A stretch of 63,294 nt of DNA, counting the filler, from Anaerolineae bacterium (GTDB lineage Bacteria; Chloroflexota; Anaerolineae; Epilineales; Epilineaceae), in the NCBI GenBank assembly GCA_029262755.1. It is 6 parts of 6 records of this genome, joined end to end, with 100 filler letters (N's around TTAATTAATTAA, not from the genome) between each part and the next. Parts side by side here need not be neighbours in the genome. Positions count along the whole stretch, not along the records: positions 49,066 to 57,357 come from JAJCYU010000221.1; 5 more parts are not named here. One strand, written 5' to 3'. Below, in pieces: positions 51,001-54,000 of this stretch. Position numbers: made by a program. Position 1 is the stretch's first letter. Every line of letters begins with the position of its first letter.

Positions 51001-54000
51001 GGTTGGAGGTCGATTCACCGGATTCCGAGGAGCCGGGCTGGATCGAGGCGACCAACGTGCAGTGCATCGCGCCGCTCTCTGCGGTGCCCATCATCGACCA
51101 GGCCTACCTGGCGCCGGCAACGCCGACGCCCATCGCCGTCTCCGCGAGCTTCGGGCTTGCGGAAGGCGAGATCGATTCCGGCAAATGCACCATGCTGCGC
51201 TGGGACGTGCCGGTCGGCAGCCAGATCTCGGTGGACGGCAAGCTCATGCCCGGCAAGGGCTTCCAGTCCGTCTGCCCCGACGTCACGACGAGCTACACCC
51301 TGCGCTGGATCGACGCGTCGGGCGCCGCGAAGGAGCGACGCGTAACCGTGGTGGTCAACGAGGTCGTCGCCCAGGTAGCGCAAGCCGAGGCGGACGCGGC
51401 GGGCGATAGCGGTTCGAGCGGCGGCTTGGGCGGCCTACTCGACCCCGACTCACCCGAGCCGGAACCCACGATCTGTGTCGGCGACGAATGCGAGGTCGTG
51501 CTGCCCACCGCGCAGCCGACCCGAACGCGCCGCCCGCGCCCAACCAAGGAACCGACCGACCCGCCCGCCGCGCCGGAGCCCACGGATCCGCCCGCCGGCC
51601 CCGCGCCGACGGAACCGCCTGCCGGCCCGCAGCCGACATCGCCACCAGCAACGAACCCGCCGGCAACGGCCACGCTCGGCGCCACCGCGACGATCACCGT
51701 CACGGCACCGGTCACGTCGACCGCGACGGCGACTTCAACGGCCACGTTGACGCCGGAAGGCCCGCCCGCACCGACGGAGACACCGCTGCCGACGGAGCCG
51801 CCCGCTACGGCCACGCTCGAGGCGCCGACGGCAACGCCGGAGCCCGAGCCGACGGCCATCCCCGAGCCCGTTCCGACCGCGACACCGCTGAGCGGCGCGG
51901 AGGCCGGGGTTCGCTAGCACGAACGCAGTACAGCGTGACCGCAAGAGCGATAGCAATCACGAGGCGCCCCTCCGAAGAGGGGCGCCTCGCTCGTTCCTGC
52001 GCGGACTCAGGGCCGTCGTGGAGGGTCGCGTGGTGGGTCGTTCGCGTTTTCAGAGGGGGCGGACAACGATCGTGATCGCGCGGCCGGTGCACGTTCACCT
52101 GGAGAAGGACGCGCTACGCCTTCACGCGGGCGCGACGGCTTCACACGGGTGAGACGGCTTCACACGGGTGCTGCCGAGGATGGGGCGTTCCTTGCCCCGG
52201 CCACGGCTGACTGCGCAGGGCAGCCGGGGCCGTGAAGCGTCGAGCACCGGCCAGCACACGTCCCGGCGAGCGCGAATCCCAACGATCTACGCGCAGCCCT
52301 GGCATGGCGACGACCGCCCTTCCGACGCGGGCCCCGACCCCGATGTGACGGGGCGGCAACCTGGGGCCGATCCTGTGCAAACGAGAACGCGCCCCCTTCG
52401 CAGGGGGCGCGTCTCCTGATTCTTGCTTCGTCCTACGTGCTCGCGTCGACCTTGGCGGTATGTGAAGCCACCGCACCCAGCCGGGTTGCGAGCCTAGAGC
52501 TCGTGGTTAGCCAACACGAGCGGCATGTAGTTGTAGAACTTCGCGGCGGGCGTCGGCGGATCCGGATCCGGATTGGACGGACGCTCGGTCCACTCGATGG
52601 TGCTGCTGCCGCAGTCGAAGGTCAGGGCGTCGGGGAATCCCTCAGCCAAGTAGTCGCCTTCGGCCTTGATCATGTCGGAACCTTCCGTTGCGCCGGTGAA
52701 GGTCAGCTTGACCTCACCCGTCGCGTCGGACGTGCCCGTGATCGTCTCGCCCGCGTGCGGGCCGCTATCCACCACGATGGTGACTTCCGCGTCCGGTGCA
52801 GCCTTGCCGTCGGCACGGACCAACGTCGTGAGCGTCACGCTGTCGCCGATGTACAACGCGGTCGAGGCGGGCGTCATCCCGCAGGACATGACCGGCGCAA
52901 CTGGTTCCGGCGTTTCGACTATGGGCGGATCGCCCATGATGGCCTTGACTGCGCCGGCGTAGTCGCGGCCCTCATCGGTCTCAAACTCGACCATCGCGAC
53001 CATCTGCAGCTTGCCGAAGTCCGTTGCAACCTCGGTGGTGAACTCGGACTCAAGGCGAACCTTCTGGCCGGGCTCGACGACGTCCTCGAAGTCCATCCAG
53101 TCGATGATGCGCATCAGCTTGTGGAGGTGGATCGCCTCTGGATCGTTATGCTCGTAGCCGATGATCCCAAGCGAACCGCCGTTCTCCCACGGGTCGAACA
53201 CGTCCTTGCCTGTGTTCTCTACATCGACCGTGACGGTGACCTTGTTGAGAGCCGAGCGCTTGAACCATGCGTCGACCTTCATCGTCGGGGCCATGGCTTC
53301 GCCCTCGCTGATCCAATCGTTGAACAAACCGCGCCATGCGTCTGGCGACGTACCGCCGGGGGCGCCGGCCTGGTTTGCGAACTTGCCGCCCTGGGCGATC
53401 ATGAACGGCAATGTGCTCGCGCTGGGGATGACCTCACGCAGGCGGTTCATACGCGTTCGCGTATTGGGCGCCTGCTGCGTGCCGTTGGGGTCCGTGGGGT
53501 CCACGTTCGATTCAATGAAGAACACGTTGTCGACACCATCTCGCTCGAATTCCTGCTCCATCTGCCTGATGACCGGACCGGCCGTCGCGCAGATGCCTCA
53601 GGTGGAGCGTCCGTACATCTCGATAATGACCAGCGACTTCTCGCTCTGCGTAGCCGGCGACGCGGCGGTCGGGGAGGTCAAAACCATCCCCCCGATCATC
53701 GCAACAGCCAAGCCGGCAGCGAGTGCCCGCATATGGCGCATGAACCATCCTCCTTGCATAGTGCTACCCGTCGACGCGTCAATGATCCTCCGCAAATCTT
53801 TTGGGGAGGCCATTGGGCAGTGTACGGCAGCAGATTCGGACTGTCAACGGGGTAGAACGGCCTAACCGCAGGGAACGTGACCCTATCGCGTAGTCCTAGT
53901 ACTCGGGCGCATTGAATGTTCAGGGCAGGAGGGCGCCGATGCGCCGTCGATGTGGTTCGCAGAGCTGAGGGAATAGCAGCGCTATTGCCGAAGAATTGCG

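Follow-up and report, generated by a model that had tools for sequence, protein, structure and literature searches.

We identified, in an Anaerolineae genome, a gene whose one in-frame TGA is in all likelihood decoded as selenocysteine (Sec) and whose product is best explained as an exported thioredoxin-fold selenoprotein acting in extracytoplasmic thiol-disulfide exchange, a reading that, taken whole, we consider fairly probable. A redox role for the Sec residue is likely, and the more specific assignment as a disulfide oxidoreductase is somewhat favoured. The gene very probably founds a selenoprotein family whose members are routinely split in two by gene callers. Its features are listed in Table 1, with positions counted along the window, the whole stretch of DNA analysed (63,294 nt).

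Table 1. Features of the selenoprotein gene and its tandem paralogue. Residues are numbered from the ATG at 53741 unless stated.
Feature	Position	Strand	Description
Whole selenoprotein gene	52494..53741	-	415 codons plus TAG stop (52494-52496); frame with TGA read as U, homologue-based start
Shine-Dalgarno AGGAGG	53749..53754	-	7 nt ahead of ATG 53741; read from sequence
N-terminal extension of the earlier reading	53742..53813	-	24 codons, without counterpart in homologues
Signal peptide, residues 1-28	53658..53741	-	MRHMR / ALAAGLAVAMIGGMVL / TSPTAAS; n-, h- and c-regions read from sequence
Thioredoxin-fold domain, residues 36-150	53292..53636	-	AlphaFold2 model, structure and profile matches
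Sec codon 48 (U72 in 439-residue numbering)	53598..53600	-	TGA aligned with TGA of homologues
Cys51, resolving Cys of U-G-I-C	53589..53591	-	TGC; invariant in 18-sequence alignment
SECIS-like hairpin	53559..53595	-	upper stem-loop 53568-53586, loop GGUCC; flanking 7-bp lower stem
Beta-sandwich domain, residues 152-272	52926..53288	-	model strands 154-266; structural matches
Variable C-terminal region, residues 273-401	52539..52925	-	Pro-rich linkers, weak Ig-like stretch
C-terminal tail	52497..52538	-	FYNYMPLVLANHEL, [FYW]-[LM]-P-hydrophobic type; 18-sequence alignment
Tandem Cys paralogue, 295 aa	54107..54994	-	CIVC, one-residue insertion before AGP; 30% identity, no stop

One gene across an in-frame TGA

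Read with TGA as Sec, the minus-strand frame 52494-53813 is open for 439 residues and holds a single TGA, inside the motif EMYGRST-U-GIC as initially annotated; read with table 11 it yields two ORFs (52494-53561 and 53598-53813), and we conclude that these two calls are one gene. The joined 439-codon frame of the initial annotation is therefore open with its one TGA as described, but the gene starts at the ATG at 53741 and not at 53813. Wherever this could be checked (18 genes), the TGA or Cys codon is preceded, at a distance of 43-53 codons, by an ATG that has an SD-like site upstream and is followed by a signal peptide; GGAGG-like sites precede the ATG of homologues, and the start was accordingly picked by this conserved combination of SD, ATG and MRR... 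signal peptide. In an independent contig from another study (X3 record 5), the extension ahead of this ATG carries 1-nt insertions at 53793 and 53796 as well as clustered changes, and it is probably an untranslated leader.

Over positions 53140-53741 the same contig differs from the gene at 21 sites, on both flanks of the TGA, 19 of which are third codon positions, and it retains both the TGA and the hairpin that follows. Synonymous to non-synonymous changes in two near-identical pairs were 8:4 and 4:7 upstream of the TGA and 37:13 and 33:13 downstream; these ungapped counts are valid for the two pairs only, the numbers for pairs bearing indels being meaningless.

The machinery for Sec incorporation previously reported for this genome was recovered in full, with all components matched over their cut-offs: a tRNA-Sec with anticodon TCA (70.3 bits), SelB (344 bits), SelA (508 bits) and SelD (368 bits), the last with one in-frame TGA of its own. 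SelA occurs in 34 of the order's 35 genomes, as well as in all five tested carriers outside the family. The genetic code is standard, TGA being the commonest stop (1987 of 4232 long ORFs).

Conservation of the Sec column and the downstream hairpin

The TGA lies in a family motif, E-x3-R-x2-U-x2-C, and is aligned with a TGA in 28 genes from 20 Anaerolineae genomes and in each of the five loci returned by a metagenome scan, the homologues with this conserved column being 20-34% identical to our protein. Across 18 aligned sequences E41, R45, U/C48, C51 and G55 are invariant, while Ser replaces Cys51 in some genes from outside the family (G391, G268, G321 and contig C166 of G005). Recurrence within the order, previously put at 17 matches in 11 genomes (15 with one TGA), was found again when the search was repeated, at 20 matches in 13 of 35 genomes (E<=1e-5; one TGA in 18, none in two); the gap between the two counts probably reflects a different threshold.

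The supposed confinement to Epilineaceae did not hold, as we identified TGA forms in five further families of the class (genomes G255, G321, G343, G391, G268 and G585), and a profile search recovered 570 database clusters at E<=1e-3. The representatives of 99 of the best 150 clusters start just past the Sec column, bearing out the systematic truncation proposed earlier, and most database clusters of the family thus appear to be Sec forms. A scan of genome contigs with a Cys-form pattern found one locus, a G008-type gene, and is silent on range because the pattern spanned the Sec column read as Cys and can match the Cys form only.

Cys occupies the Sec column in two genomic genes, one on contig C142 of G008 and the other the tandem paralogue, which reads EMFGRTDCIVC without a stop as had been noted. 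Among 51 database representatives covering the column, we found Cys in 35 (30 CxxC and 5 CxxS), GxxC in 11 and SxxC in two.

Downstream, the upper stem-loop of a SECIS-like hairpin begins 11 nt past the UGA. A hairpin of -24.5 kcal/mol had been reported here; the hairpin is present, but its minimum free energy is -20 kcal/mol over 45 nt. Its stem is bulged. Compared with shuffles it reaches z = -2.0, a weak signal on its own, and no other family member has a weaker upper stem (5 contiguous pairs at -4.3 kcal/mol). Across homologues, RNAalifold recovers an upper stem of 7 pairs with compensatory changes in 6 of the 7 and a consensus energy of -12.55. The covariation score is 0.315 versus 0.176 in shuffles, none of 500 shuffles scoring as high, and lies above all slid controls; it is this comparison across genes, not the single fold, that excludes chance. 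The consensus (7 bp, loop GGUCC, 18 nt from UGA to loop) agrees with the bSECIS criteria set out in PMC13188914, namely a loop of 3-9 nt, a stem of 4-16 bp, G in the first two loop positions, a distance of 16-37 nt from the UGA and a minimum free energy <= -7.5.

Under a stricter definition (stem of at least 6 bp, loop 18-19 nt past the TGA, energy of -9 kcal/mol or lower), the hairpin was detected in 24 of 30 TGA genes, in neither of two Cys genes and after 12 of 1974 ordinary TGA stops; the six TGA genes falling short comprise three with bulged stems, two with stems shifted to 27 nt, and the gene described here. The covariance model R1 gives 62.5 bits at this hairpin and at most 18.5 bits elsewhere in the window, the former by construction, since R1 was built from 25 sequences that include this gene. 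A SECIS-type hairpin was looked for in the tandem Cys paralogue and none was found (R1 only 14.3 bits). Part of the nucleotide conservation of the stem is protein-driven, because the stem overlaps the conserved A-G-P codons; AGP is kept in Cys forms also. A hairpin likewise begins 11 nt past the UGA of SelD, with a different loop and without an R1 match, which we do not count as evidence.

These data bear on two readings in which the TGA does not encode Sec. If it were a true stop, the locus would comprise two genes or a decayed gene, giving a 47-residue peptide and a downstream protein without signal peptide, which is how gene callers and databases model it, and the unremarkable single-sequence fold would accord with this. 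Against termination stand the retention of the TGA column over the divergence described above, the covarying hairpin, the existence of Cys homologues and the third-position-biased variation on both sides of the codon. Moreover, the signal peptide and beta-strand 1 are encoded upstream of the TGA, so that a product of the downstream part only would lack half of the active site and the export signal; we regard termination here as very improbable.

Similarly improbable is that the TGA is read through as another residue, whether by near-cognate Trp or Cys insertion or by local reassignment. The 11 Gly forms among 51 relatives might suggest this, GGA differing from TGA, by our reasoning, in one base. 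Yet the Gly forms cluster in few clades (6 changes versus a shuffled mean of 10.7), TGA is the genome's commonest stop alongside a complete Sec machinery, the hairpin matches a bacterial SECIS in position and loop, and the column is a redox Cys site, where Sec/Cys pairs are the rule. Decoding as Sec therefore remains the reading that we adopt, in which SelB carrying Sec-tRNA(Sec) would bind the hairpin 11 nt downstream of UGA codon 48 and selenocysteine would be inserted.

Predicted architecture, export and activity

The N-terminal signal peptide previously described is also read from the sequence in all 17 alignment rows with a complete N-terminus; its n-, h- and c-regions were judged by eye and its cleavage site is approximate. 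In the AlphaFold2 model (mean pLDDT 70-96 in 10-residue blocks over residues 31-280), strand 38-44 leads to U48 at the N-terminus of helix 49-67, and P112, invariant in the 18-sequence alignment and a candidate cis-Pro, precedes strand 113-116. The thioredoxin-like domain and beta-sandwich of the initial annotation are supported by structural matches: thioredoxins match the model at Z 8.5-10.3 over 84-94 residues, both domains are matched by HBP35 (5y1a) and DUF1223 (2axo), and the beta-sandwich is matched by an Omp28 domain (2r2c, Z 9.7). The family profile additionally matches the PDB thioredoxin 6zom (E 3.9e-5). As modelled, the N-terminal domain belongs to the thioredoxin-like fold superfamily: it has the beta-alpha-beta core, and helix 1 carries the redox motif at its N-terminus.

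No Pfam family scores over cut-off for the protein, in line with the earlier report. The best is Big_1 (21.4 bits, E 2.7e-4, versus a cut-off of 34.9), and the Thioredoxin, Redoxin and Glrx-like matches have E about 0.15. PF00085 gives this protein 12.6-13.1 bits compared with a gathering cut-off of 23.5 bits, and matches 8 of the 18 members weakly (best E 0.0015).

The C-terminal region 273-401, whose Ig-like stretch is the one matched by Big_1, has block-mean pLDDT of 27-68 and differs among homologues, and a tail of the [FYW]-[LM]-P-hydrophobic type, with an invariant Pro (P407), ends all 18 aligned homologues. Of 8772 long ORFs in the genome, 70 finish with a strict form of this motif, compared with 1-4 in control windows and none in shuffled tails. 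Among Pfam and NCBIfam matches up to E 1 there is no C-terminal secretion-domain family, the C-terminus being a short YMPL tail, and a single literature search brought up no relevant description of a C-terminal sorting signal in Chloroflexota.

From these features we propose the following sequence of events. The signal peptide would carry the protein out of the cytoplasm, and its retention at the cell surface is probably due to the Pro-rich linker and the short Y-M-P-L tail at the C-terminus, as judged from their sequence. There the thioredoxin-fold domain, packed on the beta-sandwich as in HBP35 and DUF1223, would present U48-G-I-C51 at the start of helix 1, and the most likely activity would be extracytoplasmic thiol-disulfide exchange via a U48-C51 selenenylsulfide. 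More tentatively, the protein may represent an uncatalogued family in which Sec is the usual state and which is displayed at the surface by a new C-terminal sorting tail in Anaerolineae, [ILV]-[YWF]-L-P-hydrophobic-A-x-R after a Pro/Thr-rich linker, carried by about 70 other large ORFs. Under such sorting the organism would place its selenium chemistry outside the cell, with redox work on outside substrates or on its own surface proteins.

The protein could instead be a real selenoprotein that is no disulfide oxidoreductase, its Sec binding or transforming something else outside the cell, such as a peroxide by single-Sec peroxidase chemistry, a metal or metalloid, or, as in HBP35, haem. We consider this unlikely, although several observations are consistent with it. 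Forms without the resolving Cys exist (the UxxS genes named above), as do the CxxS, GxxC and SxxC representatives, and the 11 Gly forms among 51 together with some UxxS forms fit a simple dithiol-type mechanism poorly for the family as a whole. HBP35, which gave the best structural match, is also a hemin binder, using its C-terminal half for this (PMC2907840). No thiol-redox partner is encoded nearby: beyond the paralogue and an adjoining GH88 gene, the latter also adjacent in G002, we found no partner such as CcdA/DsbD and no conserved neighbour on the 8292-nt contig, other flanks being short. Conversely, disulfide exchange in a thioredoxin fold classically takes place at a UxxC or CxxC that opens helix 1; this motif is invariant in the 18 closest sequences, and the thioredoxin motif of HBP35 has been shown by experiment to be catalytically active, reducing insulin via C48/C51 (PMC2907840). 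Thiol-disulfide exchange thus remains the activity that we favour.

Recognition of the family would set right how hundreds of Anaerolineae genes are annotated; the truncated database entries lack the signal peptide and half of the active site. It would provide a clean series of covarying SECIS elements to go with a Chloroflexota SelB, and would add to a mostly uncultured class that has been little studied a selenoprotein that is exported and probably held at the surface. Thioredoxin-fold UxxC proteins are the commonest bacterial selenoprotein kind, and the chemistry is therefore unsurprising.

Relation to known protein families

The claim of a new family without a Pfam model is upheld within the sources compared: a catalogue from 2026, covering 119 selenoprotein families of prokaryotes, lists nothing alike, though supplements of the selenoprotein surveys might name the family otherwise. 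The families of Haft & Tolstoy 2025 were compared through Table 1 of PMC13188914 and through NCBIfam models, none of which scores over cut-off for the family. NF053656, the TUGYCR-motif thioredoxin-fold (seleno)protein, has a similar local motif (T-U-G-I/Y-C), and matches one of 18 members at E 0.18 against a 100-bit cut-off, its only match in the genome lying elsewhere at 12 bits.

Thioredoxin-fold selenoproteins in which Sec replaces the N-terminal Cys of CxxC are described, in Table 1 of PMC13188914, for Trx PF00085, thiol:disulfide interchange PF13098, DsbA-like, DsbG-like, TlpA-like cd02966, Redoxin PF08534, SaoT and a HUIPC-motif family. They share with the present family a SECIS inside the coding sequence and Cys homologues, and their Pfam and NCBIfam models fall below cut-off on the 18 members; the present family adds the fused beta-sandwich, the export signal, the linker and the C-terminal tail.

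The architecture itself has relatives: HBP35, DUF1223 and Omp28-type proteins match it in structure and, faintly, in sequence. Omp28 (PF11551/NF033782) comprises named Bacteroidota lipoproteins, whereas the present signal peptide has no Cys; NF033782 gives weak matches to four of the 18 members (best E 0.003, below cut-off), and Omp28 clusters occur among ESM Atlas neighbours (scores 0.86-0.88). With NF033782 below cut-off, no lipoprotein Cys and no C-terminal secretion domain among the Pfam and NCBIfam matches, the protein falls outside the Omp28/HBP35-type class as so defined. DUF1223 (PF06764; 2axo, Agrobacterium AGR_C_4864) has the same two-domain architecture (Z 14.8, 201 residues). Seven of the 18 members show a faint sequence likeness to it (best E 8.3e-4), below the gathering cut-off of 30.7 bits, a DUF1223 cluster is among the ESM Atlas neighbours (0.86), and the genome holds no PF06764 match at E<=1; we found no Sec forms of DUF1223 in print.

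The best match is HBP35, hemin-binding protein 35 of Porphyromonas gingivalis (PDB 5y1a; VIA-align Z 18.9 over 220 residues, rmsd 3.4; Foldseek E 5e-12), which is absent from the profile matches among the 60 best of 62 PDB matches listed. Both proteins combine an N-terminal thioredoxin motif (C48xxC51 versus U48xxC51), a beta-sandwich and a C-terminal sorting region; HBP35 is exported and surface-located, and the present protein is predicted to be so. HBP35 differs in its Cys in place of Sec, its identity of 14%, its type IX secretion C-terminal domain, its hemin binding and its occurrence in Bacteroidota. The family described here would link this orphan architecture of DUF1223, Omp28 and HBP35 to selenium use.

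The gene, its start and the selenocysteine machinery

The initial annotation had read two gene calls as one frame joined by an in-frame TGA, with a Cys-containing paralogue as neighbour, and both points are borne out. With TGA read as selenocysteine (U), 52494-53813(-) is open for 439 residues and contains a single TGA, in EMYGRST-U-GIC, while translation with table 11 breaks the same frame into two ORFs. The start proposed at 53813 does not stand. In 17 of 18 full-gene homologues an ATG lies 43 to 53 codons 5' of the TGA or Cys codon, with a GGAGG-like site ahead of it and, behind it, MRR and a hydrophobic stretch; the eighteenth (L026, from genome G013) is a gene running off a contig end. 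Starting at the window counterpart of this ATG, the protein has 415 residues, with Sec as residue 48. An independent contig from a different study (X3 record 5, about 96% identical, spanning 53140-53863) retains the TGA and the hairpin behind it unchanged. It differs from the window at 21 positions within 53140-53741, 19 of them third codon positions of the selenoprotein frame (four of the five upstream of the TGA), and it has single-nucleotide insertions at 53793 and 53796. The frame is thus under coding constraint upstream as well as downstream of the TGA, and the 24-codon extension is non-coding. We conclude that the gene is real.

The Sec machinery claimed for this genome (G000) was all found: tRNA-SeC with anticodon TCA, SelA, SelB, and a SelD gene (L019, G000:C109) with its own in-frame TGA (SSCAGU-ASKMGPE), SelD being itself a selenoprotein here. 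SelA scored over cut-off in 33 of the 35 genomes of the order (G006 has a contig-end fragment only, and G005, which is 86% complete, gave no match), and in all five carriers tested outside the window's family, a set without G585. Among G000 ORFs of at least 300 codons, TGA is the stop in 1987 of 4232, so that it is not generally reassigned.

A 472-codon antisense ORF covers the whole selenoprotein gene, and nothing supports its status as a gene; long antisense ORFs are typical of high-G+C DNA. A glycoside hydrolase family 88 (GH88) gene adjoins the tandem pair, as it does in G002 (L021:3334-3801(-)), which is probably local synteny and not a functional link. Fragments of the ClpB C-terminus lie at two contig starts.

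Features of the probable selenoprotein locus (window positions unless residues are stated)
Feature	Position	Strand	Remark
Contigs C212, C215, C216, C221, C233, C240			N runs between them: 20787-20886, 37868-37967, 48966-49065, 57358-57457, 60256-60355
Contig C221	49066-57357		8292 nt; carries selenoprotein gene
In-frame TGA	53598-53600	(-)	U48
Start ATG	53741	(-)	counterpart of homologues' ATG
AGGAGG	53749-53754	(-)	upstream of ATG
Beta-sandwich	residues 152-272		AlphaFold2 model
Tail, selenoprotein	52497-52538	(-)
Cys paralogue	54107-54994	(-)	EMFGRTDCIVC; 365 nt upstream of selenoprotein gene, same strand
Tail, Cys paralogue	about 54110-54140	(-)	C-terminal end
Antisense ORF	52437-53855	(+)
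GH88 gene	55343-56998	(-)
ClpB fragments	49073-49750; 60386-60874

Distribution across Anaerolineae and in databases

The family had been thought restricted to Epilineaceae. Across the 35 genomes of the order, we identified 20 matches, distributed over 13 genomes; 18 contain a single TGA and 2 contain none. All lie within that family (f1), in which 12 of the 16 other genomes have one. In a class sample of 401 genomes, the core profile A2 matched 17 genomes, with extra copies in G005, G008 and G012, and TGA genes in four additional families (G255 and G321 in f56, G343 in f36, G391 in f14, G268 in f53), so that the proposed restriction no longer holds. The only additions from a phylum sample of 401 genomes were G585, a member of the same class (f62) with two copies carrying TGA, and a single weak match beyond the class. 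In total, 28 genes with TGA, spread over 20 genomes, and 2 with Cys were counted. All five metagenome loci have TGA at the site, the profile used having left the motif out.

A profile search of 1.84 billion representatives gave 570 clusters at E<=1e-3, 173 of them at E<=1e-30. Among the best 150 of the 570, 99 start just past the Sec column (94 at profile positions 20-45), as expected of gene calls cut short by a TGA upstream, in agreement with the systematic truncation first reported. The other 51 cover the column, with 30 CxxC, 11 GxxC, 5 CxxS, 2 SxxC and 3 other forms. On a FastTree phylogeny of 143 of the best 150 representatives, Cys forms are dispersed among truncated forms, needing no fewer than 28 changes, of which well-supported branches force 11; Gly forms are grouped, with 6 changes where shuffling gave 10.7 on average. 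Sec appears to be the commonest state of the family. On sequence grounds, the family is exported; it occurs in no fewer than six families of Anaerolineae, and its database entries are systematically truncated.

The GxxC representatives (P0026, P0027, P0031, P0035, P0046, P0065, P0066, P0084, P0125, P0129 and P0149) may be true TGA-to-GGA replacements or an artefact of translation under another code. UxxS replaces UxxC in members outside the window's family (loci L047 of G391, L048 of G268, L049 of G321, L060 of G005:C166, and L068).

A SECIS-like hairpin behind the UGA

Most of the 26 genes folded first have a post-TGA hairpin at one fixed position. RNAalifold on an ungapped alignment of 25 of them (A3) gave seven pairs, columns 15-21 with 27-33, around a G-G-U-C-C loop in which G23 is invariant and U24 at least 90% conserved; the stem starts 11 nt and the loop 18 nt from the UGA. 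Compensatory double changes occur in six of the seven pairs. For the extended structure, the covariation score was 0.315; shuffles gave 0.176, and none of 500 scored as high. In the same structure 75% of cells were paired, compared with 26-54% with partners slid. A 2026 review (PMC13188914) quotes four criteria for the consensus bacterial SECIS model, and the hairpin agrees with all of them.

A strict test (contiguous stem of at least 6 bp; loop 18-19 nt past the TGA with G in its first two positions; -9 kcal/mol or lower) was passed by 24 of 30 TGA genes and by neither of two Cys genes; of the 1974 TGA stops that end long ORFs in G000, 12 passed it. The six failures comprise three genes with bulged stems, two with the hairpin moved to 27 nt, and the window's own gene, whose hairpin has five contiguous pairs and reaches -20 kcal/mol including a bulged extension and lower stem. 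The 27-nt position is seen in L060 and L068.

Stem and A-G-P codons overlap, and A-G-P is also kept as protein in Cys forms, so nucleotide conservation in the stem is partly protein-driven. Stem changes that cost amino-acid changes (A-V-G-P-T in G014b, A-G-G in G013a) argue for selection on the RNA. A covariance model built from 25 post-TGA sequences (R1) matched sequences outside its build set at 57.8 bits (L067) and 32.9 bits (G012), and Cys forms at 14-20 bits; at the window site, itself part of the model, it scored 62.5 bits, and elsewhere in the 63-kb window at most 18.5. A GC hairpin also lies behind the SelD UGA; its start is again 11 nt away, and its loop is different. The product of the gene at 52494-53741(-) is very probably a selenoprotein.

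Protein architecture and relation to known families

No Pfam family scored over cut-off, as the initial annotation had stated, with weak Big_1, Thioredoxin, Redoxin and Glrx-like matches only. The thioredoxin-like domain and beta-sandwich that it proposed are both in the AlphaFold2 model (mean pLDDT 70.8; 10-residue block means 70-96 over residues 31-280; C-terminal third poor). A modelled strand (38-44), U48 starting helix 49-67, and invariant P112 ahead of strand 113-116 are the predicted equivalent of a thioredoxin active-site layout. Sub-threshold sequence matches among 18 aligned members were to DUF1223 (7), Omp28 (4) and thioredoxin (6-8), and Atlas neighbours scored below 0.9. The region after the beta-sandwich varies among homologues (L023; L035 of G014; L030 and L031 of G009 and G010; L026 of G013), some having extra domains of 100-150 residues ahead of the common tail; database relatives carry BACON_2 (PF19190).

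A short [FYW]-[LM]-P-hydrophobic tail, preceded by a Pro/Thr-rich linker, closes each of the 18 aligned proteins. Many large ORFs of G000 likewise have a Pro/Thr-rich linker near their end, then [ILV]-[YWF]-L-P-[WLVIF]-A-x-R plus a few more residues, and no transmembrane segment past the motif; several have secretion-type N-termini. Of 8772 G000 ORFs of at least 200 aa, 70 have the strict form of the motif at their actual C-terminus (upstream control windows 4, 1, 2 and 2; shuffled tails 0). The tail may be a shared sorting or anchoring signal, possibly one of Anaerolineae that has not been described before.

Table 1 of PMC13188914 lists 119 families, in which we found no DUF1223-, Omp28- or HBP35-type entry, these names being absent from the review text; its thioredoxin-fold UxxC families are defined by Pfam or NCBIfam models, none of which scored over cut-off here. 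Neither Chloroflexi nor Anaerolineae is mentioned in the deep-Sep paper. Judged by title and abstract, the papers found for DUF1223 do not deal with selenium; nothing relevant was found for selenocysteine with Omp28, nor among the top matches listed for selenoprotein with Chloroflexi or Anaerolineae. Within the literature searched, the family is uncatalogued. The claim of a new selenoprotein family holds at family level, with no Pfam or NCBIfam model over cut-off and no entry in the catalogue examined; its kind, thioredoxin-fold UxxC selenoproteins, is already well known.

In structure, plain thioredoxins (Z 9-10) and the Omp28 domain (2r2c, Z 9.7) match the model, the DUF1223 protein 2axo matches over both domains (Z 14.8, 201 residues), and HBP35 of P. 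gingivalis (5y1a) is the best match, again over both domains (Z 18.9, 220 residues). HBP35, which is surface-located, has a C48xxC51 motif active in insulin reduction, and the protein complements dsbA (PMC2907840). By analogy with these activities, we infer that the selenoprotein would carry out extracytoplasmic selenosulfide/disulfide exchange, by a mechanism that is not uniform across the family, given its UxxS, CxxS and GxxC members.
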